From Planctomycetota bacterium (GTDB taxonomy: Bacteria; Planctomycetota; Phycisphaerae; WQYP01), in NCBI GenBank assembly GCA_021819825.1, contig JAKAEZ010000011.1, forward strand, positions 6,209 to 70,208: a DNA stretch of 64,000 nt, given 5' to 3'. The notes beneath the pieces were generated by a model that did no database searches, was not told the DNA's origin, and saw only the letters and a list, made by a program, of their open reading frames with translations. Position 1 is the first letter of the stretch; each line of letters starts with the position of its first letter. Positions 10,985-57,264 of the stretch are shown piece after piece. The position numbers were made by a program, and so were the translations under genes.

Positions 10985-11671
10985 ATGGGAATGAATCAGA
11001 TGCCGACTCCCAAACATGACGCCACGGACTTACTGCAAACTCAGTCTGGGAAGCTTGCCATTGAACCGTTATCTGTCCCGTTGCTGGCGACTTTTATAAC
11101 CTGTGGATTTTACATGCTGTTGCCACGGACCATGATGCTAGGTCCGCCTTGGCTGCTGTTAATTGTGGTTACGGCCGTGTTGATTCCGTTGATTATTTTC
11201 CGATTGCGGCAGCGTTTTTTCCTCAGCCATGTGTGCGGCCACATTTCCGCGGCCCTTATTACGCTGTTCACCGGGTATTCACTATTGGCACTGGTACGGG
11301 ATTTGCCAACACAACATGATACGCCCATCCAGATGCTCAGAGCGGCGGGAATGCTTTGGATGATTAACGTTCTGATTTTTTCCTTTTGGTACTGGCGGCT
11401 TGATGGCGGGGGGCCGCACGCGCGGGCTTCGCGCGGCCACTACCAGACGGGGTGTTTTTTATTCCCCCAGATGACCATGCGAAACGGTGATCCATCCTGG
11501 TCTCCGCGATTTCTGGATTATTTATTCGTCGCTTTTACCACCAGCACCGCCTTCTCCCCAACCGATACGCCCGTGCTTTCCCGCTGGGCCAAACTCTTGA
11601 CCATGTTGCAGGCCATTATTTCACTGGGCATTGTGGTGTTAATTGCCGGTCGGGCGATCAATATTATTTAA
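10985..11671 (+). CDS. Polytopic membrane protein, DUF1345-like
   Basis: It has 4-5 hydrophobic helices. The C-terminal segment FLDYLFVAFTTSTAFSPTDTPVLSRWAKLLTMLQAIISLGIVVLIAGRAIN resembles the DUF1345 signature (DFLYFSFT.G.T...SD). The start is set at the first ATG. The track ORF begins at 10946. Confidence 0.45.
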   Translation: MGMNQMPTPKHDATDLLQTQSGKLAIEPLSVPLLATFITCGFYMLLPRTMMLGPPWLLLIVVTAVLIPLIIFRLRQRFFLSHVCGHISAALITLFTGYSLLALVRDLPTQHDTPIQMLRAAGMLWMINVLIFSFWYWRLDGGGPHARASRGHYQTGCFLFPQMTMRNGDPSWSPRFLDYLFVAFTTSTAFSPTDTPVLSRWAKLLTMLQAIISLGIVVLIAGRAINII

Positions 11672-43678: not shown

Positions 43679-44689
43679 ATGAATTTTGCCGTTATAGGAA
43701 TCAATCATGGCCACGTTTATGGACAGGTGGAAGGGCTTTTATCCATTCCGGGAGCCACATGTTCAGGCGTTGCCACCGCGGAGCCGCGCCTGCTGGAGGA
43801 ATTCTCCCGGCGGTTTCCTGGAGTTGCGGTTCGCACCAAAGAATCAATTCTCGCCGATCCCACAATTGATTTGATCACCTGTGCCGCGATAAATTCCCAG
43901 CGCGGTGCCTTGGCTGTTGAAGCACTGTCTCATGGCAAACACTTTTTTGTTGATAAGCCGCCATTGACCGATCTAAATCAGCTCGATCCGCTGCGCCGCG
44001 CGGTCGAAAAAAGCGGGCGGCTCTTTTTTGTCTATTTTAGTGAGCGGCTAAGCCAACCTTTTGACGATCTGGCACGACAAATATTTCGGCAGGGGGGCAT
44101 CGGCGACCTGGTGCATTTAATGGGTGTTGGGCCGCATAAACTCAATGCGGCCACCCGTCCTGACTGGTTCTTCGATCCATGGCAATATGGCGGTGTGCTC
44201 AACGATCTGCTGTCGCACCAGGTGGATTGGTTCTGCTGGTTTACCGGTGAAAAAATAAAACACTTCAGCAGCCGCGTGGGCCGCTTTGGCGCTGCGCCTC
44301 AAAAGACCTTTGACGATTTTGGGGATGTCACAGTGACCGCGGAAAGCGGCATCACCGGCTATTTTCGTGCGGACTGGTTTACGCCCGAAAAAAATCCGGT
44401 CTGGGGAGATGTCCGCGGATTAATTGTCGGCACGCGCGGCACCATCGAAATTCGCCGCATCGCCAACCTAAGCGCTATCGATGCAACCGACAGCGGGCCG
44501 TGCATGATTCTGACCAATGACACATCCGGCCCGATGCGCCTTGTGCCGGAGAATAAAACTTTGGCCTGGCCGCGGGAGATCATGACTTCTCTGCGCCTGG
44601 GAAAAAACCAACTCAATGAGCCGGAAATGCTCTGGCATGTCATGGAAACCACCCTGCGCATACAAGTCCAGGCGGTTCGTGTGAAATAA
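43679..44689 (+). CDS. Gfo/Idh/MocA-family NAD(P)-dependent oxidoreductase
   Basis: It has the N-terminal Rossmann motif FAVIGINHGH and ALSHGKHFFVDKP. Confidence 0.8.
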   Translation: MNFAVIGINHGHVYGQVEGLLSIPGATCSGVATAEPRLLEEFSRRFPGVAVRTKESILADPTIDLITCAAINSQRGALAVEALSHGKHFFVDKPPLTDLNQLDPLRRAVEKSGRLFFVYFSERLSQPFDDLARQIFRQGGIGDLVHLMGVGPHKLNAATRPDWFFDPWQYGGVLNDLLSHQVDWFCWFTGEKIKHFSSRVGRFGAAPQKTFDDFGDVTVTAESGITGYFRADWFTPEKNPVWGDVRGLIVGTRGTIEIRRIANLSAIDATDSGPCMILTNDTSGPMRLVPENKTLAWPREIMTSLRLGKNQLNEPEMLWHVMETTLRIQVQAVRVK

Positions 44690-44966
44690 AATCTCCGACC
44701 TTGCGACCTTGGTAAATAAGTAGATCAACTATCGATCCGACTGGCCGAAGATTAGTCGCTTAAATTATAAGCAGTCGCGTTGCGGTATTGTGACTCTTGC
44801 TCGCAAATCAGCACACAGGCGGCCCCGGCAACCCAAGGGCCGTATTTAAAAAGTTGGTCGGAATTCACGCGAAATATCCCCAATTTATCGGTTGAGCGGG
44901 GATATTAACGCGAAATTCCAGAAGCCATTCACATCGCGGCATTGTATTTGCATGAATTACAAACGT

Positions 44967-45005
44967 GGTGAGATTCACCGCGTTCCCCGATTCTTGGTGA
45001 ATCGG
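44967..45005 (+). promoter_or_regulatory. Candidate alternative-pairing RNA element in the long leader of the porin/ABC operon
   Basis: GGTGAATCGG (44996-45005) can pair either with GATTCACC (44972-44979) or with CCGATTC (44987-44993). The two pairings are mutually exclusive. The function is unproven. Confidence 0.3.
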
Positions 45006-45247
45006 CGTTGTTCTGTGAGGCATTTTTTGCATCCGGGCGGCGGTACAAAGCTTGAATCTCCCTTTTTTGTTCTTTCTTTTTTTAAGGAGGACACATGCCT
45101 GTATTATGAGAATTTCCAGTTGATTATCCGTGCAGTCGCGGAAATGTGCGTCCGCCGACGTGCCGCCAAAGTTCACAGGATGCTGCAATCTGGTGTGTCA
45201 TCAGATTCGCCATGGATATTTGTTGACTTTATTTGGGAGTATTTTCA

Positions 45248-46300
45248 ATGTTGTCGTCTCTTACGGGTAACCCCAGGATTGCCAGTGCATTGGCCGCCGC
45301 GGTGATGTTGAGCGTCGGCGGCGTTTGTGTCGCGGCAAACACCGCCTCTAGCTCATCGAATGTCGCCGCGCCGCCTGCGGCCTTATCAGGTGCTGCCACC
45401 GGCTCCGCAGCGGATCAGGCTGTCAATGATCTTTTGAGTAAGTCCAGTGCGGGTTCCTCTGACACTGTTGTGTCATTGGATGATGCAGGCAGTGGTGATA
45501 CGCTGGGTTCGGCCATGTCCGTGTTTATCCAATCCACGTTTGCCACTGATTACATTACCCCGCGCGGTTTGCATGTATCGGACAAGGGCGTTACCTGGCA
45601 GCCCTTAACGGTCATTAATATGGATGTTTACAGCGGGAAGGGATTGATCAATGATGTGACCGCGTACGGGGGCATCTGGCAGGACTGGAATAGCCAGCAG
45701 CATATTAAACCTGATGGAGCATTCCAGGAAATCGATCCCTTTGTGGGTGTCAAGACCACCCTTGCCAAGGCTTTTACCCTCGATTTTCAGTATGTTGATT
45801 TTATCAGCCCGAACGGCTCCTACACGACGGAGCAAAATTTGTCGTTGAAACTAAGTTATCACGATACATTCCTCAAAAACTTCTCTTTTAATCCTTACAT
45901 CAACCCGTTTTACGAAGTTACGGGAAGTTCAACCGTAGTCACCGGTCGAAACGGCGGGACGTTTGATGTGGAAGTGGGTATGGTTCCAACGTACACGTTG
46001 GCGGCGATCAAAAATTATCCGATCACGCTGACATTTCCGACCTGGTTTACCGTCGGGCCCAAGGACTTCTGGGATGCCACGGGACAGACCAAAAACAATT
46101 TTGGCGTGCTATCCTCCGGCCTGCAGTTAGCGGTTCCGCTGTCCTTTATTCCCAAGAAATTCGGGGCATGGACGGCCTTTACCGGCTTCCAGTATTACAA
46201 CGAACTCAATAACAATCTGATGACCGCTTCGCATATTCTTGGTACCGGCGGACACCGGAATATTTATATCGGCACCGTTGGTGTCAATGTGTTTTTCTAA
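45248..46300 (+). CDS. Putative outer-membrane beta-barrel (porin-like) protein
   Basis: It has a signal peptide (ALAAAVMLSVGGVCVAAN), an alternating amphipathic beta pattern, and a C-terminal ...GTVGVNVFF ending in Phe. ATG 45248 follows a gggag. Confidence 0.55.
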   Translation: MLSSLTGNPRIASALAAAVMLSVGGVCVAANTASSSSNVAAPPAALSGAATGSAADQAVNDLLSKSSAGSSDTVVSLDDAGSGDTLGSAMSVFIQSTFATDYITPRGLHVSDKGVTWQPLTVINMDVYSGKGLINDVTAYGGIWQDWNSQQHIKPDGAFQEIDPFVGVKTTLAKAFTLDFQYVDFISPNGSYTTEQNLSLKLSYHDTFLKNFSFNPYINPFYEVTGSSTVVTGRNGGTFDVEVGMVPTYTLAAIKNYPITLTFPTWFTVGPKDFWDATGQTKNNFGVLSSGLQLAVPLSFIPKKFGAWTAFTGFQYYNELNNNLMTASHILGTGGHRNIYIGTVGVNVFF

Positions 46301-46346
46301 ACCCGTGTTGAATGTTTCAGGCAGTTTATGTTAAGAAAGGAAAAAA

Positions 46347-47480
46347 ATGAAAACTGGTAAAAACTATCTTGTCCACTATGCCGCCAGGCGGATGCAGCCG
46401 CTGCTGGTGGCATTGGCGGCGTTGCTTTTGCTGGCCGGTGCCGCCAGACCGCTTTGGGCCGCTTTCACCGTCGGGGTTATTACCGTGGGTTCCACCAAGG
46501 ACTGGGGCTACAACGAAGCCCAGGCGGTGGCCGGAAAATCGCTTAAAAAGATTCCGGGAGTTAAAGTGGTGGTTCAGGACAATGTCCCGGAAACCATCGC
46601 CGTCACACAGACGATGCAAAGTATGATCAACTTTGATAATGCCAAAGTGATATTTGCCACATCTTACGGGTATTTTCCATTTGTCTGCAAACTGGCACCC
46701 AAATACCCCCATGTTCTGTTTGTTCACTGCGGTGGCGATTATGTGCCGGGGAAGACGCCTAAAAATGTTGCCACGTATTTTGGTGATGTTGATGAGGTGG
46801 AATATCTCAGCGGAATCGTAGCCGGCTACAGCAGCAAAAGCGGCAAACTCGGTTTTATTGCCGCCAAACCCATTCCGCAGGTATTGCGGGACATTAATGC
46901 CTTCACTCTCGGTGCACGTTCAGTCAATCCCAAAGCCACCTGTACCGTTGTTTTCACTGGCGACTGGTTCCAGCCCGTCAAAGAAGCTCAGGCGGTAAAC
47001 AGTCTGGCTGACCAGGGAATTGATGTCGTGACTATGCACGTCGATAGCCCGAAGCAGATTATTCTCACCGCCAAGAGTCGGGGGATATATGTGTGTGGTT
47101 ATCACTTTGATGGCGCTGCGTTATACCCCAAAGGTTTTCTCACCGGCTCCGCGTGGAACTGGGCACCGATTTATAAAGAACTGGTTACCGACGCCATGAT
47201 GGGCAAACCCTATCCCCACAGCATTATGGAAGGCTTCCGTGATGGGGTGGTGAAGCTTGATCCGTTTGGTCCGGCCGTTTCCCCCGCCGCCAAAACCGCG
47301 GCACTGGCGGTGAAAAAAGAGTTCATGGCCGGCAAGTTCCAGATCTTCAAAGGCCCGCTTTATTCCAACACCGGAAAACTCGTGATTCCCGCGGGGGTCG
47401 TGTACCACGATGCCGCCCCCACGCTGGATGGGATGAATTATCTGGTCAAAGGTGTTATCGGTAAGATCAGTTGGAATTGA
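46347..47480 (+). CDS. BMP-family (PnrA/Med-like) ABC transporter substrate-binding protein
   Basis: It has a signal peptide, VGVITVGSTKDWGYNEA, and GFIAAKPIPQVLRDINAFTLGAR, as in basic-membrane-protein family binding proteins. Confidence 0.8.
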   Translation: MKTGKNYLVHYAARRMQPLLVALAALLLLAGAARPLWAAFTVGVITVGSTKDWGYNEAQAVAGKSLKKIPGVKVVVQDNVPETIAVTQTMQSMINFDNAKVIFATSYGYFPFVCKLAPKYPHVLFVHCGGDYVPGKTPKNVATYFGDVDEVEYLSGIVAGYSSKSGKLGFIAAKPIPQVLRDINAFTLGARSVNPKATCTVVFTGDWFQPVKEAQAVNSLADQGIDVVTMHVDSPKQIILTAKSRGIYVCGYHFDGAALYPKGFLTGSAWNWAPIYKELVTDAMMGKPYPHSIMEGFRDGVVKLDPFGPAVSPAAKTAALAVKKEFMAGKFQIFKGPLYSNTGKLVIPAGVVYHDAAPTLDGMNYLVKGVIGKISWN

Positions 47481-47482
47481 AA

Positions 47483-48595
47483 ATGCGTATCAGTCAAGGC
47501 CAAATCTGGCTTAATTTTCCTGTGGTCAACGCCGTGCGGGCGCGTAGCAGCTTTCTGCTGCGACTCGCTGAATCGCTGACCATCACCGGGGCGGCTCTCC
47601 TCGCCTCGGTGATGGTCTTCAGCATCTTCGTGGCTATCATGAAAGTCAATCCGCTGCAGGCCTTGTATGCGATGTATCTCGGGGCCTTCGGCACAAGCTT
47701 CTCCTGGCAGGTCACGCTGGTGAAGGCTTCGCCGCTGCTGCTGACAGGATTATGCACCGCGTTGCCCATGCGCACCGGTCTGATTGTCATCGGCGGAGAA
47801 GGAGCGTTTGTGCTCGGAGGGCTCTTCGCCGCCGAGGCTGCGCACATGGTAATGGGTGCTCCCACAATCATTGTCTGGCTGGTCATGGCCGCAGCCGGAT
47901 GTCTGGTGGGGGGGATCTGGATCATGATCCCGGCGGCGCTGCGCGTATACCGGGGCGTTAACGAAACCATCAGCACGCTGCTGATGAATTACATTGCCAT
48001 CGCCATATTCAATCAGTTGGTTGAAGGGCTTTTTCATGATCCCAATTCCTTGAACAATCCCTCGACGTACAGCATCGGTGATAACAATATGATTGGCGAT
48101 ATCGGTAATTCCCAGGTGCATTGGGGATTGATCGTGGGTATAGGTATTTGTATTCTCGCATGGATACTGGTGCATCACACTACACTGGGCTTTTCAGCGG
48201 ATCTCGCTGGTGGAAATCCCAAGGCCGCCCGGCTTTCAGGCATCCGAATAAACCGTGTGATACTCTGGTTCGCTTTTCTGGGCGGAGCCTGCGCGGGACT
48301 TGCCGGCATGATACAGGTCGCGGCCGTGCAGGAGCGCGCCAATGACGGATTAAATGTTGGTTATGGATATGCGGGAATTCTTGTGGCATTCATGGCCCGA
48401 CAGGATCCCCTGGCCATTATTCCCGTAGCTGTATTACTGGGGGGCGTACATGCCGGGAAAATTCTGCTGGCCACGCAATTGGGGCTGCCGAATTCCGCAG
48501 CATTGGTTTTCCAGGGATTACTGTTTCTGTTTATTCTGGGGGCGGAAACGCTTTATGGTCGTTTTTCGATTTTCCAACCGCGGGTGCGAACATGA
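47483..48595 (+). CDS. ABC transporter permease (BMP/simple-sugar type)
   Basis: It has about 10 TM helices, with TLLMNYIAIA and GYGYAGILVAF typical of this permease family. Confidence 0.8.
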   Translation: MRISQGQIWLNFPVVNAVRARSSFLLRLAESLTITGAALLASVMVFSIFVAIMKVNPLQALYAMYLGAFGTSFSWQVTLVKASPLLLTGLCTALPMRTGLIVIGGEGAFVLGGLFAAEAAHMVMGAPTIIVWLVMAAAGCLVGGIWIMIPAALRVYRGVNETISTLLMNYIAIAIFNQLVEGLFHDPNSLNNPSTYSIGDNNMIGDIGNSQVHWGLIVGIGICILAWILVHHTTLGFSADLAGGNPKAARLSGIRINRVILWFAFLGGACAGLAGMIQVAAVQERANDGLNVGYGYAGILVAFMARQDPLAIIPVAVLLGGVHAGKILLATQLGLPNSAALVFQGLLFLFILGAETLYGRFSIFQPRVRT

Positions 48596-49518
48596 GTCAA
48601 TCACTGGGATATTGGGGTGTACCCCTGGCAGTGCTCGGAGGTATTCTCCGATTAAGCCCGCCTTTTCTTTTTGTGAGCCTGGGTGAATGCCTGACCGAAA
48701 AAAGCGGACGCATCAATCTGGGGCAAGAAGGTACGCTGGTTATGGGGGCCATGAGCGCCTACGGAATTTCATATCTCAGCGGATCGCCGTGGCTGGGAGT
48801 GTTGGCCGCCGGTGCAGTGGGATTTATTCTCGGCAGTATTCATGGCTGGTTCTGTTCACGCCCTCGGGTTAATGATATCGCGCTGGGCATCGCCATGATG
48901 TTTCTGGGAGAGGGTCTGGCTTTTTATCTTGGGCGCGGATTGATTCAGCCCCAGGCGACGCAGTTGGCTTCCGTCAATCTTGGCTGGTGGAGTCATCAGC
49001 CGGAAATTGTCGCGGCGCTGAAAATTAATATTCTGCTTCCGGTGGGCTTGGCGCTGGCCATTATCATGTGGTGGGCGTTTCGGTATACCCGGTGGGGTAT
49101 GGTCGTGCGGTTGGCGGGTGAAAGCACCGATGCCTCGCGTGCCATGGGCTACAGCATTAACACCATTCGATTCCTGGCAACGGCAGTCGGCGGATTTATT
49201 GCCGCCATCGGCGGCGCATTTCTTTCGCTTTATTATCCGGGATCATGGAATGACAACATTTCCAGCGGCCAGGGACTTATGGCCGTGGCGCTGGTGATTT
49301 TTGCGCGATGGAATCCCATTAATTGTATTTACGCCGCTGTGATTTTCGGCGGTGCCAAAGCGATTGGACCGGCGTTACAGGCCGCCGGTTACAGCTCCTA
49401 TACTTATCTGATGAACGCGGCACCGTATGTCCTGACGATGGTGATAATGATCATTACCTGTTCACGCACCAGAGCGTGGGTTGGCGCGCCGGCGGAACTG
49501 GGAGCGAGCTTGAGATGA
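48592..49518 (+). CDS. ABC transporter permease (second subunit)
   Basis: It is polytopic, with GECLTEKSGRINLGQEGTLVMGA. Both of its junctions are ATGA overlaps. Confidence 0.8.
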   Translation: MSQSLGYWGVPLAVLGGILRLSPPFLFVSLGECLTEKSGRINLGQEGTLVMGAMSAYGISYLSGSPWLGVLAAGAVGFILGSIHGWFCSRPRVNDIALGIAMMFLGEGLAFYLGRGLIQPQATQLASVNLGWWSHQPEIVAALKINILLPVGLALAIIMWWAFRYTRWGMVVRLAGESTDASRAMGYSINTIRFLATAVGGFIAAIGGAFLSLYYPGSWNDNISSGQGLMAVALVIFARWNPINCIYAAVIFGGAKAIGPALQAAGYSSYTYLMNAAPYVLTMVIMIITCSRTRAWVGAPAELGASLR

Positions 49519-50222
49519 CAAAAATGACTGATCCAAAAAAAACGTATCCGAAAGTTGACGCGCAATTATACGCGTGGCCGTTTGACGGCGACTTGCGAGC
49601 CGCCAATACCGCCCTGATGATCATTGATATGCAGCATGATTTTTGCAGTCCCGGCGGTTTTATTGATCGGTTGGGCCTGCCGGTGGCCGGTACGCGGGCC
49701 ATAATTCCAAGCGTGGCGCGCGTGCTTGCGGCCATGCGGGCGGAGGGTTTTCATATTATCCACACGCGCGAAGGACACCGCCGGGACGGGACGGATGTAC
49801 CGGCTAACAAGGCCTGGCGTCTGGCGCGGGCTGGTGTGCCGATCGGGGCGGCACCGGGGCCTTGCGGTATGGTGCTTACACGCGGTGAACCGGGTTGGGA
49901 AATTGTTCCGGAATTAGCGCCATGGCCTGATGAGCCGGTGATTGATAAACCGGGCAAAGGGGCATTCTACGCCACTGATCTGGAACTCCTGTTGCGGACA
50001 CGTAATATTCGTAATCTTGTTTTTACGGGTGTCACAACCGATGTGTGTGTCCATACAACCTTGCGCGAGGCCAATGATCGGGGTTATGAATGCCTGCTGC
50101 TTGAGGACTGTTGTGCCGCGATAAACCCGGCTAGCCATGACATGTCCGTTTGGCAGGTGCGGGTGGGAGCGATTTTTGGCGTTGTGGCAAAGTCCGGAGA
50201 ATTATTGAGGGCCATTGCATGA
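49515..50222 (+). CDS. Isochorismatase-like cysteine hydrolase, paralogue 1 (BiuH/TrtA/RutB-like)
   Basis: The Asp/Lys/Cys triad contexts are present: [33 protein letters not shown]. It also has IIHTREGH. The start is ATG 49515 inside the longer track ORF. Confidence 0.8.
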
Positions 50223-50920
50223 ACCAGACATCTGTAAGGCAAGGCACCATGATGGCTTCGGCACCCTATCCGTGGCCCTACGACGGTGATTTTCGCCGCG
50301 AAAATACGGCGCTATTTATTATTGACATGCAGACGGATTTCTGCGGTAAAGGTGGGTATATTGATCTGCTGGGATATGACATTTCCATAACCCGCGCCTG
50401 TATTGAACCCATTGGTCGATTGCTGTCAGCCATGCGCGCGGCTGGTTTTCATATTATTCACACACGGGAGGGGCATCGAGCGGATTTATCTGATCTTCCA
50501 GCCAATAAGCGCTGGCGGTCGCGCCAGGGCCATGCCGGAATTGGTGATCCGGGGCCGTGCGGACGCGTGCTGGTCCGCGGTGAACCGGGCTGGGAGATTG
50601 TCCCGGAATTAGCGCCGCTTCCCGGTGAGCCAATTATCGACAAGCCGGGAAAAGGATCGTTTTACGGCACTGACCTGGACATGATTTTGCGGCAGCGCGG
50701 TATACGAAACATTATTCTCACCGGCATTACCACGGATGTATGCGTGCATACGACCATGAGGGAAGCCAATGACCGCGGTTATGAATGCGTGCTTTTAAGC
50801 GATTGTTGCGCCGCCACGGATCCCGCTAATCACCTGGCCGCAATGAATATGATCAAAATGCAGAACGGCGTTTTCGGTGCTGTGGGGACATCCTTACAAC
50901 TGATGGAGATAATCCAATGA
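50219..50920 (+). CDS. Isochorismatase-like cysteine hydrolase, paralogue 2
   Basis: It has [22 protein letters not shown] and [11 protein letters not shown]. By eye it is roughly 60% identical to paralogue 1. Confidence 0.8.
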
Positions 50921-52482
50921 GTCCTGGACGAATCGAAGTAACCAGACATGGAGCGCCGGGGCTGGAAGTTATCGGCATGAGTAAGCGCTTCGGCTCGCTG
51001 AAGGCTCTGGATAATGTGAGCCTGAAAGTCCAACCCGGGACGATCCATGCGCTCCTGGGCGGCAATGGTGCCGGAAAAAGCACGCTGGTTAAATGTGTCA
51101 TGGGCTTTTATCACGCTGATGAAGGCGCTATTGTTCTGGGACCCAAGCAGGTCACCGTCAAAGACCCGCGCGAGGCGCGGGAACTGGGAATGGGTATGGT
51201 GTATCAGCATTTTACGCTGGTGCAGAATATGACCGTCCTGGAGAATCTGGTTCTTTCGCGCGGCACGGTTCCGGGCGTTATCAAGTGGCGGCAGGAGCGG
51301 CAGGAAGTAGAGCATTTCATGGCCACAACGCCTTTTAAGCTCAGTACCGACATTAAAATCAGCAGTCTTTCCGCCGGTGAAAAGCAGAAATTGGAAATTC
51401 TCAAGCAGTTGTATCTGAATACCAAGTTGCTGTTTCTGGATGAGCCGACCTCCTCACTTACGCCCGGCGAAACCGAAGAGGTGCTGGGAATGTTGCAGGC
51501 CATGGTCAGGCGTGGAGAATTAACCATTGTGCTTATTACGCATCGGTTCCGCGAAGTCATGCGATTCGCCGATGCCTGCACCATCTTACGCAACGGCAAA
51601 TTCGTCGGCACCGGACTGGTGGCGGAATTGGATCAACAGCGCATGTCGGACTGGATGATCGGCTCAGATCAGGTTATCCAGACCGCGGCACGTAAAGACA
51701 TTCCCAGCGGCTCGATCAAACTTGAATTGCGTGATTTACAGGCCCGGAGTGATTCCGGGGTGCCGGTGTTGGAAAAACTCAATGTTTCGGTGCGCGGCGG
51801 CGAAATTGTGGGTATTGCCGGAGTCTCCGGCAACGGTCAGAAAGCGCTTATTGAAGTCATTGCCGGACAAAGACCACTTACCGCCGGGCAGATTCTCGTG
51901 CGGGATCAGCCGTATCGGGGGACACGCAGAGAAATTCAATTCCACCGTCTGAACTGCCTGCCTGAAGAACCACTGCACAACACGTGTGTGGGGCACATGA
52001 GCGTGACCAGAAATATGGCGATGCGGAAATTTGATCAGAAACCCAACCGTATGTTCGGCTTCTTCCTGCACAACGGTCGGTTACGCCGTCACGCGTTGGA
52101 TCTGATCAGGCGTTACAATGTTAAAACGCCATCCCCGGAATCCCCCATTCGCAATCTTTCGGGAGGCAATATTCAGCGGGCGGTCCTGGCACGGGAGTTG
52201 TGCGAACCCAGCGAGGTTCTGATTACCGCCAATCCCTGTTATGGCTTGGATTTTCATGCCACCGCTGATATTCGTTCGCAAATTATGGAAGCCCGTAACC
52301 ACGGAGCCGCAGTTCTGCTGATCAGCGAGGATCTTGATGAAATTCTGGAACTGGCCGATCGTATATTCGTTATTTTTGAAGGGAAGTTGATTTATGAAAC
52401 TTCCGCGGCCGCCGCGGATATTTCACACATTGGTCAAGCCATGGCCGGGCATTCATCGGCTGAAGAACTGGTGCACGCATGA
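50917..52482 (+). CDS. ABC transporter ATP-binding protein with two nucleotide-binding domains
   Basis: It has GGNGAGKST (Walker A1), [26 protein letters not shown] (A2), LSGGNIQR and LLISEDLDE. Confidence 0.9.
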
Positions 52483-53159
52483 AAACTGTTGACGCCCAAC
52501 CGTTTCCCTATGAACTGCCGGAACAGGGAGTAGCGCTGATCGTGATTGATATGCAGCGGGACTTTATTGAACCGGGCGGTTTTGGCTCCATGCTGGGCAA
52601 TGACGTTCGCCCGCTGGCGGCCATTGTTCCGGCGGTGCATAAGTTGATCGCCGCTTTTCGTCGCCGGGCCTGGCCGATTATTCATACGCGCGAAGGACAT
52701 CAGAGCGATTTGTCTGATTGTCCGCGGGCCAAACGTTATCGCGGATTTCCGAAACTGCGCATCGGAGATGTCGGCCCCATGGGCCGAATTCTAATTGATG
52801 GACAACCCGGCAATGAAATTGTCGCGGAACTGGCACCGGCCCCGGGAGAATACCAGATCGTCAAACCCGGCAAAGGCGCCTTTTATAAAACCGATCTCTC
52901 GGCGATTCTCGCTGACCTGAAGACCACACATCTGGTTTTTGCGGGTGTTACAACCGAAGTTTGCGTGCAGACTTCCATGCGTGAAGCCAACGATCGCGGC
53001 TATTACTGTTTATTAATCGAGGATTGCACCGCCAGCTATTTTCCCGCATTTCGGCAATCCGCACTGGATATGATCCGGGCCCAGGGGGCCATTGTTGGTT
53101 GGACCGCAACATTAAAAAGTTTCCTGCAATCGGTAGAGGATAATCGCGCCTATGCCTGA
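52479..53159 (+). CDS. Isochorismatase-like cysteine hydrolase, paralogue 3 (more divergent)
   Basis: It has [32 protein letters not shown] and IIHTREGH. Confidence 0.8.
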
Positions 53160-53505
53160 AGAAACACCCTTGGTACTGTGCAATTTGTTCGGCCCGGATG
53201 TTGACCTGGATCGCTTCGCCTGGCAGCCGTTCAAAGAAGGAGTTGAGATTTTTCGCATCTATGGCGACGGTAAATCAGGTGCCGCGGCCGCGCTTTTGCG
53301 CTATCAGCCCGGAGCAAGTGTACCTCTGCATGAGCATCCCGATTATGAGCTGGTGCTGATCCTCCGGCAGGGACAGCGTGACGCGCGTGGGGGTTATGAG
53401 GCCGGCACGTTACTGGTAAGTCCGCCGGGCAGCCGCCATGAAATACGCAGTCCGGGAGGGTGCGTGGTGCTGATTGTCTGGAACCAGCCCGTGAAGTTTA
53501 TTTAA
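53152..53505 (+). CDS. Small cupin-domain protein (ChrR-like cupin)
   Basis: At 117 aa it carries the motifs [18 protein letters not shown] and PPGSRHEI. It overlaps the upstream gene by 8 nt. Confidence 0.5.
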
Positions 53506-53585
53506 TATGGTAGAATTTCAAATGGGCCCCGGTGTTTGGCGGCAGCAGGGCGACGGCATCATTGATTTGCGGGAAACATGGAATC

Positions 53586-55472
53586 ATGGCAGAGGATTTG
53601 CAACGGCTGGCTTTTACGCTCGATTCAATTACCGAAGCGTACAGGCAAAAAACGTATACGGTCACGCAGGTAATTGAAGAATCGTTGCGCCGTCTTGCGC
53701 TGTCGCCGGAGGGCGTCTGGATTTCCGCCACAGAACGTCATGTGCTAATGCGCCGGGCCGCGGATGCGGACACTTGGCTCTCCACCGAGCCTGACGTTCT
53801 AAGCCGCCTGCCGCTTCTGGGAATTCCGTACGCGGTGAAAGATAATATCGATGTTGCCGGTCTGCCTACCACCGCCGCCTGCCCGGCGTTTTCTAATATG
53901 CCCCCGGAAAGTTCCCCTGTGGTCAGGCTGCTGGATCAGGCCGGCGCAATATGTATGGGCAAAAACAATATGGACCAGTTCGCCACGGGGCTGGTCGGCG
54001 TGCGATCCGCGTTTGGCCCCTGTCCCAACGCGCTGAACTCTGAATATATTTCAGGCGGTTCAAGTTCCGGATCCGCAGTGGCCGTGGCGCTAAACCAGGT
54101 GAGTTTTTCACTGGGGACCGACACCGCGGGATCGGGGCGCATTCCGGCGGCCCTGAATAATATCATCGGCTTTAAACCCACACGCGGGCTGCTTAGCACG
54201 CGCGGCGTGGTGCCGGCATGCCGCTCTCTTGATTGTGTATCAGTCTTCTCGCTGCTGGCCGCCGATGCGTGGCGGGTTTTTACGGTTCTGCGGCAACCGG
54301 ATGGCGCGGACGAGTTTTCAATTGCCAATCCACCCGCTCTCCAGGCACCGGCTCCGCTGCCGCCCGCGTTTGTGGTGGGCGTGCCGCAACGTAATAAGCT
54401 CGAATTTTTCGGCGATTCGGAGGCGGCTGAACTATTCCAGAATGCGGTCAAGAGAATTATCGCGCTGGGCGGCAAGGTGGTGGAAATTGATTTTACCCCC
54501 TTTCAGGAGGCAGGTGAACTGCTCTATAACGGCCCCTGGATCGTAGAGCGTTATGCCGGACTCCAAGCGTTTGTGGTGTCTCATCCCGGCGAGTGCCTGC
54601 CGATTATCGAACAGATTTTTTCCGCTTCCCGCAATTATTCCGCGGAAGATGTATTTGCCGCTTTACATCGGCTGCGAAAGCTGCTCATGCAAACGCGGCA
54701 AACCTGGAAAAATATTCAGGCTCTGGTGTTGCCCACAGCCCCCACGATCTATCGACGTTCTGAGATTCACGCCGATCCGATCCGCCTGAATACTCAATTG
54801 GGGTATTACACCCGCTTTGCCAATCTTCTGGATTGCTGTGCCGTGTGCGTGCCGGCCGCAATTCGTTCCGACGGACTGCCTTTTGGAATTTCGTTTGTCG
54901 CGCCGGCCTTTCATGAGCATGAGTTAATTGCTCTGGCGGGCCGCTTCCACAGCGACGCACAACTGCCACTGGGAGCCACGGGGCACCGTGTTGCCGCCCC
55001 TCCCGGCGCGATTGAATCGGCACCGGATGAGCACGGAATTGATTTGGCGGTGGTCGGTGCCCATCTTTCTGGTCAACCGCTGAACCATCAGCTTATCCAG
55101 GTCCATGCCCGCTTTGTACGTGAAGCTCGCACCGCGCGTTGTTACCGCCTTTCCTGTCTCGCCAACAGCAAGCCCGCAAAACCTGGATTGCTGCGCGTCA
55201 CCGGCGACGGGGGAGCCATTCGTTTGGAGATATGGCGAATTCCCCGCCGCAACTTCGGTGATTTTCTGGCACTGGTGCCGGCACCCTTATGTATCGGGAC
55301 TATTGAACTGGACGACGGCACCAGCGTTAAAGGCTTTTTATGTGAATCCATCGCGCTGGAGCAGGCGCGGGATATAACCGCCTTCGGCGGCTGGAGAGAG
55401 TTTTTGATTGAAGATCGGGGCGAAGCGGGGTATAACGCTGCCTATGACAGCTTCACACAGCGGGAAAGTTAG
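53586..55472 (+). CDS. atzF: Allophanate hydrolase (amidase-signature domain plus AH-specific C-terminal domain)
   Basis: It has YAVKDNIDVAG (catalytic Lys), GGSSSGSAVAVA (Ser-cisSer), and a C-terminal LAVVGAHLSGQPLNHQL...KPGLLRV...LEIWRIP...FGDFLALVPAPLCIGTIELDDGTSVKGFLCE typical of allophanate hydrolases. Confidence 0.8.
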   Translation: MAEDLQRLAFTLDSITEAYRQKTYTVTQVIEESLRRLALSPEGVWISATERHVLMRRAADADTWLSTEPDVLSRLPLLGIPYAVKDNIDVAGLPTTAACPAFSNMPPESSPVVRLLDQAGAICMGKNNMDQFATGLVGVRSAFGPCPNALNSEYISGGSSSGSAVAVALNQVSFSLGTDTAGSGRIPAALNNIIGFKPTRGLLSTRGVVPACRSLDCVSVFSLLAADAWRVFTVLRQPDGADEFSIANPPALQAPAPLPPAFVVGVPQRNKLEFFGDSEAAELFQNAVKRIIALGGKVVEIDFTPFQEAGELLYNGPWIVERYAGLQAFVVSHPGECLPIIEQIFSASRNYSAEDVFAALHRLRKLLMQTRQTWKNIQALVLPTAPTIYRRSEIHADPIRLNTQLGYYTRFANLLDCCAVCVPAAIRSDGLPFGISFVAPAFHEHELIALAGRFHSDAQLPLGATGHRVAAPPGAIESAPDEHGIDLAVVGAHLSGQPLNHQLIQVHARFVREARTARCYRLSCLANSKPAKPGLLRVTGDGGAIRLEIWRIPRRNFGDFLALVPAPLCIGTIELDDGTSVKGFLCESIALEQARDITAFGGWREFLIEDRGEAGYNAAYDSFTQRES

Positions 55473-56313
55473 CCCACGGCATACATTTTGTACCGGCTAT
55501 TATCGTGAGCCGTTTCTAACGCTATGTTCAAACCTTCCCGATGCTACGGCGTATTCGCCGAAAGATTTCTATGTGGAATGGGGGCCGGTGTTTCATCGCG
55601 GACGTCTGGATGGCACAGCGCGCGTGTTGATTCTGGGAATGGTTCCAACCCAGCTTGAACTTATTGCCCGCCGAATTCTTATGGGCGAGGCCGGCCAGCG
55701 CGTGCAGGGATTTCTGGCCAAGCTCGGGCTGGAAAGAAGCTATGTAATGCTCAATACCTTCATCTACAGCATCGCCAACAGCAAGGCACCGGGAGCCTAT
55801 CAGGATCACCCGGTCATATCCGGTTATCGCCATGCCTGGATTGATGCTTTGGTCACTGCGGATATTGATGCGGTGGTCGGTTTGGGGGCGCGGGCTGATG
55901 CCGCATTTGCCGCCTGGCGACAAACCCCCAACGGGAAATCGTTTTCCGGAGCGTATGTTAATATCGTGCATCCGACACAGCCCGAAAGCGCGGCACACGG
56001 CGATCCGGCGCGACTGGCTGCGGCCACTGCGGCATTACTTGATAACTGGAATGGGGGGCTGGCGTTGCTGCATAAAACAATCCGAATTCCGGATCATGAT
56101 GTAAAACTGACCCCCTATCGGAGTGGATTCACTCCGGATGATTTGCGGCCGGTTCCGTTGTTTGACCTTCCGGTTGCCACACCCGCGTGGATGGGCCAGG
56201 CAACGTCATGGGCTACTCGGCCGAGCGGCGATCGTATGGAGAAACGGGCCAGCATTATTGTTTGCCCGCCGGAAAGCGTCTACCGGCAATTCGGTATCGC
56301 AGATTCCCGATAA
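55444..56313 (+). CDS. Uracil-DNA-glycosylase-superfamily fold protein with non-canonical motifs
   Basis: LILGMVPTQLELIARRILMGEAGQRVQGFLAKLGLERSYVMLNTFIYS parallels the family-4 UDG layout (GEAPG..E...G.PF.G.AG..L...L..GL.....Y.TN), and IVHPTQP parallels HPS. The start is uncertain (55408 or 55444). Confidence 0.4.
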   Translation: MTASHSGKVSPRHTFCTGYYREPFLTLCSNLPDATAYSPKDFYVEWGPVFHRGRLDGTARVLILGMVPTQLELIARRILMGEAGQRVQGFLAKLGLERSYVMLNTFIYSIANSKAPGAYQDHPVISGYRHAWIDALVTADIDAVVGLGARADAAFAAWRQTPNGKSFSGAYVNIVHPTQPESAAHGDPARLAAATAALLDNWNGGLALLHKTIRIPDHDVKLTPYRSGFTPDDLRPVPLFDLPVATPAWMGQATSWATRPSGDRMEKRASIIVCPPESVYRQFGIADSR

Positions 56314-56320
56314 TGTTTGT

Positions 56321-56968
56321 TTATTGGGCCGCAGCGCGGATCGTGGGATCCTCCTTTGGATCAGCAGCAATTGCTTTGAGTTCCGCTGCGGCCTGCGGCC
56401 CGCCCAATGCCTTTAATGCGACGACCGCCGCGCTCCGCACGCTTGGTAGAAAAAAATGATCGGCATTATGCAGAATGTTTATCAGCGGAACAATCGCCCG
56501 CGCGTCTTTTCGGGTGCCTAGCGCCTTGATGGCTTCCTCACTGACTTCGGCCATTGTATCGCGGGTTGCGGTGATCAGAGCCTCCAATGCCCGCGGATCG
56601 GTAATAGCTCCAAGACTTTTAATGGCCGCCACCCGTACGACTGTATGAAAATAGTGATCGTCATTGCGGGCCACTTCAATAAGTACGTCCACGGCCGCGG
56701 GGTCGCCGCAGACGCCCATTGCCATCACGGCATCACTGGCTTTATCTGCCGACCGATCTCGAACGGCGATCAATAATTCTGCAAAAGACACCTTGGCTTC
56801 GCGTGCCGTGGATCGGTTCGCCGCCGCTGCCACGGCGGTTCCCGGCAGCACGGCCGCGGGAGCTTCCCGAGTTGGAGCAGGCTTCTGCGCCGGCTCTGCT
56901 GCCGGCGCTGTCGAGACCTGTTTCAGTGTTTGCGGTTTGTTTCTTGATTTTTTTCTGAAGTTAAACAT
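56321..56968 (-). CDS. HEAT-repeat (PBS-lyase-type) protein with a basic, Ala/Pro-rich N-terminus
   Basis: It has repeats of ..AAI.ALG...D..A...LI....D. The start is set at ATG 56968 (MFNFRKK). The track ORF extends to 57139. Confidence 0.6.
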   Translation of the reverse strand: MFNFRKKSRNKPQTLKQVSTAPAAEPAQKPAPTREAPAAVLPGTAVAAAANRSTAREAKVSFAELLIAVRDRSADKASDAVMAMGVCGDPAAVDVLIEVARNDDHYFHTVVRVAAIKSLGAITDPRALEALITATRDTMAEVSEEAIKALGTRKDARAIVPLINILHNADHFFLPSVRSAAVVALKALGGPQAAAELKAIAADPKEDPTIRAAAQ

Positions 56969-57264
56969 GCCATATTCTCTCTGTTCAAGGGATAAAATCC
57001 TACCGGCATCCGAGTTGGGCGGACGCTGATTCCACAATGAATACTCTAGCAAATTCAACATCCACAAACAAATCATCTGCGTAAAAAAAAAGATAAAATC
57101 ACCCATGATCGCGTCTGTCTGGCTGCGTCTGTTTGACAAATGCGGCAGTTTGCATGGATCATATCTTGGTCAATGGCCTAATCATCGTACGCCACCGTGA
57201 TTAGACCGGCGACTGCTTCCGGGGTGTCGCGCCACGACATTTTTTGTATTTTAGGAGTTCATGT

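Follow-up and report, generated by a model that had tools for sequence, protein, structure and literature searches.

Triuret and biuret occur as impurities in fertiliser and arise when urate is oxidised; the enzymes that liberate their nitrogen are characterised from a few bacteria only. Published operons combine trtA, biuH and atzF with a GntR regulator and an ABC cassette (PMC7948467), and in nitrifiers the clusters are arranged as atzF-biuH-trtA-trtB-bmpA-nupABC (PMC12625717). Here we analyse a stretch of 64,000 nucleotides, hereafter the window, from a planctomycete of the class Phycisphaerae (assembly GCA_021819825.1, contig JAKAEZ010000011.1, positions 6,209 to 70,208), in which eleven genes encode a predicted outer-membrane channel, a BMP-type ABC importer, three isochorismatase-like hydrolases (IHL-A, IHL-B and IHL-C, in gene order), a cupin, an allophanate hydrolase and a protein of the uracil-DNA glycosylase (UDG) superfamily. 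We conclude, with a probability of about 0.8, that this cluster is the Phycisphaerae version of the known triuret/biuret mineralisation operon. An initial annotation, made from the letters and open reading frames (ORFs) of the window, had put the locus forward as a candidate system for ureido-nitrogen catabolism; such a system is already in print as a trtA-biuH-atzF cluster with an ABC cassette (PMC7948467, PMC12625717). The pathway is known, and what is new is a third hydrolase clade, a putative outer-membrane channel of the Planctomycetota-Verrucomicrobiota-Chlamydiota (PVC) group, a sigma-54-type promoter with its leader, and the mutual exclusivity of cupin and AtzH-like genes.

Results

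Pathway enzymes

Homology and residue comparison show IHL-B to be a BiuH, IHL-C a TrtA and the amidase an allophanate hydrolase. IHL-B (50219-50920, + strand) scored 404.3 bits against NF050097, the NCBIfam equivalog for biuret amidohydrolase (EC 3.5.1.84; curated cut-off of 370 bits, whole-protein score), a cut-off below which IHL-A (319.8 bits) and IHL-C (230.5 bits) both remained, and it matched the crystallised BiuH of R. leguminosarum (PDB 6AZO) with E = 9e-113. Six positions separate TrtA from BiuH (F35/Y, N41/Y, A134/S, E160/D, Y187/T and I205/V; Tassoulas et al., PMC7948467), and IHL-B has the BiuH residue at all six (Y47, Y53, S147, D173, T200 and V218), while also keeping the triad Asp36/Lys142/Cys175 and the ligands Phe41, Lys145 and Gln215 from the BiuH residue list of PMC7948467 and PMC5806882. 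IHL-C (52479-53159, + strand) aligned without a gap over residues 3-213 to the crystallised triuret hydrolase TrtA of Herbaspirillum (PDB 6XIX, E = 1.6e-89), whose numbering it shares, and it carries the TrtA residue at each of the six positions (F35, N41, A134, E160, Y187 and I205) together with D24, K129, K132, C162 and Q202. In neighbour-joining trees of 61-62 sequences, the TrtA clade that includes IHL-C and the PDB TrtA stood apart from BiuH with 98-100% bootstrap. The amidase (628 aa; 53586-55472, + strand, with an alternative GTG start at 53532) exceeded both allophanate hydrolase cut-offs (NF006043, 772 bits against 487; TIGR02713, 741 bits against 511), combines the Pfam domains Amidase and AH_C, and shows KDN and GGSSSGS motifs in its translation.

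These scores and residues support the stepwise deamidation, through BiuH- and TrtA-type hydrolases to allophanate and then to NH3 and CO2, that the initial annotation had proposed, and its allophanate hydrolase call was borne out by both curated cut-offs. The Asp/Lys/Cys triad that it had read in all three hydrolases is indeed retained (as invariant alignment columns), and the urea carboxylase that it had found missing was likewise absent, as domains, from the ten large window ORFs scanned. It had further suggested a phylogeny and an active-site comparison with characterised relatives; these placed IHL-B with BiuH and IHL-C with TrtA, with RutB scores far below the cut-off, so that the "three diverged paralogues" of its wording are better described as BiuH, TrtA and a third distinct clade.

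Operon organisation

The eleven genes run in one direction (45248-56313, + strand), and independent gene calls on the source contig agree with them. The gene for the outer-membrane protein (45248-46300, + strand) is followed on the same strand by those for a BMP/PnrA-family periplasmic substrate-binding protein (46347-47480; PF02608, E = 1.8e-38), ABC permease 1 (47483-48595) and ABC permease 2 (48592-49518; both BPD_transp_2), IHL-A (49515-50222), IHL-B, the duplicated ATPase of the importer (50917-52482; two ABC_tran domains), IHL-C, the cupin, the allophanate hydrolase and the UDG-superfamily protein. The families that had been named for these proteins were each confirmed by Pfam and NCBIfam, and the range 45248-55472, to which eleven genes had been ascribed, holds ten, the eleventh (55444-56313) extending beyond it. 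Spacings among the first ten genes are, in order, +46, +2, -4, -4, -4, -4, -4, -8 and +80 nt, such that the six junctions from permease 1 through the cupin are ATGA-type 4-nt or 8-nt overlaps; these support translational coupling and one transcription unit, and from them we infer that the operon is a single co-transcribed unit. The same block in the same order occurs in four further metagenomic lineages (loci L004, L006 and L088, and in part L003/L005); it is a conserved unit and did not come together by chance.

Comparison with published and fetched clusters

We fetched the 80 best BiuH loci, with one genome per GTDB species, and mapped the window proteins onto them (87 loci in all, numbered with the prefix L). 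Orthologues of the BMP protein (46-63% identical) occupy the same position in 55 of the 87, permeases were found in 61 and the ATPase in 72, and in most fetched loci the ATPase gene lies between biuH and trtA. The genes for bmp, biuH, trtA, cupin and allophanate hydrolase are all present in twelve loci, and the order bmp-perm-perm-biuH-ATPase-trtA-cupin-AH (AH, allophanate hydrolase) is shared by Rhizobium, Devosia, Hoeflea, Bauldia, SAR324 and others as well as by the sister lineages. Given this recurrence, the BMP importer and the cupin are standard parts, and the importer that had seemed puzzling from the sequence is a usual partner of biuH and trtA. Nor is a PVC host as unusual as had been supposed, since many of the 80 best BiuH genome matches are from Verrucomicrobiota or Planctomycetota.

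Compared with the triuret/biuret cluster of Herbaspirillum sp. (PMC7948467), the window has a TrtA and a BiuH with every published specificity residue, an allophanate hydrolase, and a BMP-type ABC importer interleaved with the enzymes, in a gene order found in many Alphaproteobacteria. It differs in having no GntR regulator and no atzD, a cupin instead of an AtzH-like gene, a third-clade hydrolase between permease 2 and biuH, a channel gene at its head, a long structured leader behind a sigma-54-type promoter, and a planctomycete (Phycisphaerae) host. The clusters of ammonia oxidisers and comammox Nitrospira, for which organic-nitrogen scavenging has been proposed, have the same enzymes and a BMP-type ABC transporter; they differ in carrying trtB (or, in comammox, no decarboxylase) and sometimes allFGHK, and neither a third hydrolase nor a porin has been reported for them (PMC12625717).

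Other transporters and host labels were seen in passing among the fetched loci. A multi-pass permease of about 530 aa without a Pfam match occurs in biuH/trtA clusters, mostly of Verrucomicrobiota (L072 4869-6449, and also L012, L014, L020, L030, L031, L039, L040, L042, L043, L057, L064, L079 and L085); in several loci it stands at the place of the BMP ABC importer, and L072 has both. Two loci labelled "uncultured Klebsiella sp." (L039 and L043) have the order channel-biuH-trtA-cupin-allophanate hydrolase that is otherwise seen in Limisphaerales (L042), and the label is probably a binning or labelling error.

A third hydrolase clade

The closest characterised relative of IHL-A is the R. leguminosarum BiuH (PDB 5BK6, 6AZO and 6AZQ; PMC5806882), with which it is 59% identical in the multiple alignment. 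Like BiuH it has Asp36/Lys142/Cys175, Phe41, Lys145, Glu84 and the Thr171 region of the cis-peptide; unlike BiuH it has Phe for Tyr47, Leu for Tyr53, His for Thr39, Ala for Ser147, Ile for Thr200 and Ile for Val218, a 105-110 loop longer by one residue, NKAWR for NKRWR, CGM for CGR, and a deletion of Gln215. Just nine clusters (at 90% identity) out of 5.8 billion clustered proteins are 74-100% identical to IHL-A; after these comes a gap, and the next matches, at most 67% identical, are ordinary BiuH. Searched against one genome per GTDB species, the best among the matches listed is 65% identical and again an ordinary BiuH. All members of the clade keep the Asp, Lys, Lys145 and Cys, and they share a signature (His39, Phe47, Leu53, Ala147, Asp173, Ile200 and Ile218), one extra residue in the 105-110 loop and, in nine of nine, the one-residue deletion at Gln215, with an invariant Trp-Gln four residues before it. 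The clade has 100% bootstrap and is sister to all sampled BiuH (98% for IHL-A plus BiuH; neighbour-joining), with a branch length that is not in excess (depth 0.31 against 0.30).

The missing glutamine is why we do not assign IHL-A as a BiuH. In BiuH, Gln215 from the neighbouring subunit binds the distal amide of biuret, and its replacement by alanine raises KM 26-fold and lowers kcat 16-fold, a loss in kcat/KM of about 400-fold (PMC5806882); a role for IHL-A as an efficient second biuret hydrolase is therefore unlikely. From its sequence features we conclude that IHL-A is a distinct enzyme with a clade of its own, one that most likely delivers an additional ureide to the same downstream steps. 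Its substrate may be guessed to be a ureide that is longer, carboxylated or substituted, the candidates being tetrauret, carboxybiuret or an N-substituted biuret, and the invariant Trp-Gln, one helical turn upstream, may replace Gln215 as the distal anchor.

The slot of IHL-A is constant, between permease 2 and biuH (L001, L003-L006 and L088). In the more distant lineage of L003/L005, the channel, BMP importer, IHL-A and biuH are kept (as is the cupin in L003), and the clusters lack trtA and an allophanate hydrolase gene. Several genes of L003 (1-13470) and L005 (1-12822) look frameshifted, probably through long-read assembly errors. In Rhizobium-type and some cyanobacterial clusters the same slot is occupied by a formamidase-like CN_hydrolase gene (L084 8940-9956 and 12 other loci).

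Cupin and AtzH-like genes

The single-domain cupin (117 aa; 53152-53505, + strand; Cupin_7, ChrR-like, PF12973) has 3O14 as its closest PDB entry, and the metal-site residues of the pattern H-x-H-x3-E...H (His/His/Glu/His) are aligned. According to the initial annotation its role cannot be read from the sequence, and its database names are generic too; the protein is not peculiar to this locus, as a cupin comes after trtA or biuH in 32 of the 74 loci for which the sequence sufficed (e.g., L017, from 12856). An AtzH-like (DUF3225) gene is present in 12 of the 74 (e.g., L022 14507-14926), in loci that carry an AtzE-like amidase as well (examples from the range L008-L087), and the two genes co-occur in none (Fisher p = 0.0008, not corrected for phylogeny). 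Such exclusivity could reflect either replacement by a non-homologous gene or a pair of alternative branches. The trtB gene has been placed in one tree with atzH and hpxZ (PMC12625717), on which ground TrtB, the published carboxybiuret decarboxylase, is probably AtzH-like and the cupin an uncharacterised protein. Cupin_7 may act on carboxybiuret or allophanate, in which case it would stand in for the AtzH-like protein without homology to it. A literature search for a cupin together with biuret hydrolase found nothing.

Predicted outer-membrane channel

The product of the first gene (350 aa, without a Pfam or NCBIfam match) has a signal peptide, a disordered linker rich in Ala, Ser and Gly (residues 26-86), a barrel and a C-terminal Phe (Phe350, invariant in its homologues). 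An AlphaFold2 model built with 44 homologues shows the signal helix, the linker and a beta-barrel of about a dozen or more strands, with a predicted local distance difference test score (pLDDT) above 90 over most of the barrel. Its best Foldseek matches are outer-membrane barrels, for the most part channels and porins (OmpC, OmpG, PcoB, a COG4313 channel, NanC, VhGalP and Tsx), and the target-normalised template modelling scores go up to 0.71 (PcoB), with NanC and VhGalP at about 0.6. These features agree with the outer-membrane barrel that had been proposed for the operon. The 58 homologues are all annotated as "hypothetical", those with a named source come from Phycisphaerae, Tepidisphaeraceae or Humisphaera, and among the fetched loci the barrel gene occurs in PVC-type clusters only. 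We interpret the first gene as encoding a predicted, PVC-restricted outer-membrane beta-barrel with putative channel activity, which resembles OmpG, the KdgM/NanC family, PcoB and COG4313 in predicted fold, signal peptide and terminal aromatic residue, and differs from the small monomeric channels in having no Pfam/NCBIfam sequence similarity, a 60-residue disordered N-terminal linker and a restriction to PVC.

Predicted promoter and structured leader

Upstream of the first gene, a pattern search with 2 mismatches located a sigma-54-type -24/-12 element (GGCAT-N5-TTGCA; 44938-44953, + strand). L004, L006, L088 and L090 all keep its GG and GC (GGCAC-N5-TTGC in L088/L090), and the sequence that can be aligned among these and the window, five lineages in all, begins at this GG-N10-GC element. 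The distance from the element to the first ATG is 309-310 nt in four of the five; in L004 the called start lies at 336 nt and the aligned ATG at about 310. Element and leader together span 44938-45247 in the window, 5427-5740 in L004, 5149-5460 in L006, 9692-10000 in L088 and 767-1075 in L090. The pattern is weakly present upstream in L003, and genes for sigma-54 activators lie upstream in L003 and L005 and in L042, L047 and L072. In L003/L005 a CHASE-domain histidine kinase and a sigma-54 activator are encoded immediately upstream of the cluster.

The five-lineage alignment further delimits a structured 5' leader (44960-45110, + strand) with hairpin P2 (44987-45005), supported by covariation, hairpin P3 (about 45006-45042), whose loop region GGYAUUUUUUGC is invariant, a pyrimidine tract, an AAGGAGG that is a strong Shine-Dalgarno sequence (45084-45090), and a conserved mini-ORF of four codons (45095-45109; MPVL* in the window, MPAL* in L004 and L006, MPDR* in L088 and L090), all on the + strand. 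In the two hairpins, pairing extends to 95.5% of cells and both partners vary in 10 of the 22 pairs. The covariation score of 0.63, which none of 500 shuffles reached, compares with 0.06-0.19 for slid partners; the outer stem is a separate prediction in each lineage group. Rfam returned no match at the gathering threshold in the window (the leader gave only noise, E >= 0.58), exact-pattern scans of metagenome contigs from the Joint Genome Institute (JGI) found no copies of the leader, and a covariance model of the five sequences, run on 40 sources, returned just the lineages that it was built from. With five sequences in two or three groups, we treat the leader as a lead, not as a demonstrated regulatory RNA; together with its mini-ORF, it may respond to a ureide or to nitrogen status.

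Last gene and genomic setting

The last gene (55444-56313, + strand; 289 aa) shares its first 29 nt with the 3' end of the allophanate hydrolase gene, and is for that reason probably co-transcribed. Its product is of the type of Bradyrhizobium Blr0248 (PDB 5GN2, E = 1.6e-75) and has faint UDG-family matches. Blr0248 was described as a new class of uracil-DNA glycosylase. The gene stands directly after that for allophanate hydrolase in four lineages (the window, L004, L006 and L088); we saw no link to ureide catabolism, and it does not appear to be part of the ureide pathway.

Housekeeping proteins of the window belong to clusters (at 90% identity) in which the named members carry the label "Phycisphaerae bacterium". 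The surroundings were compared with L092, a Phycisphaerae metagenome-assembled genome of about 95% nucleotide identity, which is colinear with the window up to 44688 and again from 57125. In place of window positions 44689-57124, L092 has just 222 bp (11011-11232), such that its Gfo/Idh/MocA gene leads almost directly to its fucosidase gene. Because both flanks are colinear across so short an interval, the 12.4-kb block, which comprises the leader, the eleven genes and, on the minus strand, a HEAT-repeat gene, appears to be strain-variable, with the caveat that a run of N, flanked by a 17-nt repeat, lies at the junction in L092, so that an assembly gap is possible. The HEAT-repeat gene (56321-57139, - strand), with weak NblB/CpcE-like matches, converges on the end of the operon inside this block. 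In L088 (1-9479; GCA_027451365.1) the operon adjoins urease subunit genes, ureD/F/G and a urea-type ABC transporter, making up what looks like a larger island for urea and ureide nitrogen; these neighbours fit a nitrogen-scavenging role.

Discussion

On the reading that we favour, the sigma-54-type promoter, presumably under nitrogen control, would give one transcript headed by the 310-nt structured leader. The substrate would pass the outer membrane through the dedicated small beta-barrel channel, be bound by the BMP-family protein and be imported by the ABC system of two permeases and a fused ATPase. TrtA would then convert triuret to carboxybiuret and one ammonia, carboxybiuret would lose CO2 to give biuret, either spontaneously or with help from the cupin, BiuH would deamidate biuret to allophanate, and allophanate hydrolase would free the last two ammonia and two CO2. 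The steps assigned to transporter, channel and cupin, the place of IHL-A, and the sigma-54 dependence and co-transcription of the operon are the conjectural parts of this scheme.

Several points weigh against it. The window has no AtzH-like (DUF3225) gene and no regulator gene, including a cognate enhancer-binding protein, adjoining the operon. The sigma-54 pattern is not enriched across the window and alone is not above chance. The literature covered reports no ligand for a BMP protein from a biuH/trtA cluster, and we know of no source of triuret or biuret in nature for an aquatic or soil planctomycete. What we say of substrates and regulation in this lineage draws wholly on homology and gene context.

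Other uses of the whole operon would have to account for the same genes. BiuH was first described in the cyanuric acid pathway (PMC5806882), and a role in s-triazine catabolism as in Rhizobium leguminosarum, where AtzD opens the ring and carboxybiuret passes through BiuH to allophanate hydrolase, gains some substance from the seven fetched loci that hold atzD inside the same cluster type (L084 reads bmp-perm-perm-amidase-biuH-atzD-ATPase-trtA-cupin); yet the 64-kb window has no AtzD homologue (nor formamidase-like or UreG homologues), AtzD is absent from the sister loci L004, L006 and L088 too, and biuH is mostly independent of atzD (PMC7948467), making this use extremely doubtful. Salvage of nucleosides or pyrimidines in the manner of Rut, with the BMP protein importing nucleosides and the hydrolases being RutB or nicotinamidase types, would draw on the best-known ligands of the BMP family and on RutB as the next-best NCBIfam match; its probability is practically negligible, as the hydrolases reach 92-132 bits with the RutB model (cut-off 378) and 230-404 bits with that for BiuH, their E values are 1e-24 to 1e-30 for PDB RutB and 1e-87 to 1e-113 for BiuH/TrtA, no other rut genes are present, and the BMP gene is orthologous to that within biuH/trtA clusters. 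Rut, nicotinamidase and isochorismatase assignments were all ruled out by profile and PDB match scores.

For IHL-A itself, a merely redundant or degenerating second biuret hydrolase without a function of its own is one alternative, in keeping with the position of its gene immediately upstream of biuH, its identity to BiuH and its match to the PDB BiuH (E = 4e-87). We consider it unlikely, because the clade is 74-84% identical across at least five lineages with its own invariant signature and an intact triad, lies outside all sampled BiuH without rate acceleration, has lost Gln215, and is kept in L003/L005 although trtA and the allophanate hydrolase gene are absent from the cluster there. It is very unlikely that IHL-A is a guanylurea hydrolase (GuuH) and that guanylurea or guanidine-type compounds are further substrates of the operon, with a common final step at allophanate hydrolase: GuuH is indeed isochorismatase-like and close to BiuH, the guanidine pathway does end in allophanate hydrolase (PMC9800807), and the GuuH of P. 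mendocina MET, which has been confirmed by experiment, shares 53% identity with IHL-A, but BiuH is about as similar to that enzyme (51%), GuuH(MET) has Glu at 215 and Tyr at 145 where IHL-A has a deletion and keeps Lys145, and the two grouped together in 0 of 100 bootstraps. As for the guanidine carboxylase and CgdAB, no carboxylase domains were seen in the large window ORFs scanned, though no search was aimed at CgdAB. The GuuH identity is accordingly rejected for the plasmid-borne P. mendocina MET type, the GuuH of strain GU lying outside the comparison.

A triuret/biuret operon with a distinct third hydrolase remains the reading that we prefer. More speculative, and on balance doubtful, is the joint proposal that IHL-A would be a fourth specificity of the BiuH/TrtA/GuuH group, Cupin_7 a metal-dependent decarboxylase and the 310-nt leader a new cis-regulatory RNA.

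The locus does not overturn current understanding; its value lies in annotation, where residue signatures tell BiuH, TrtA and the new clade apart, and in enzyme discovery. It points to gaps in the published pathway, namely a third hydrolase clade, a very widespread cupin partner and regulation without GntR, and would represent the pathway in a form suited to a planctomycete with two membranes, including a dedicated way in through the outer one.

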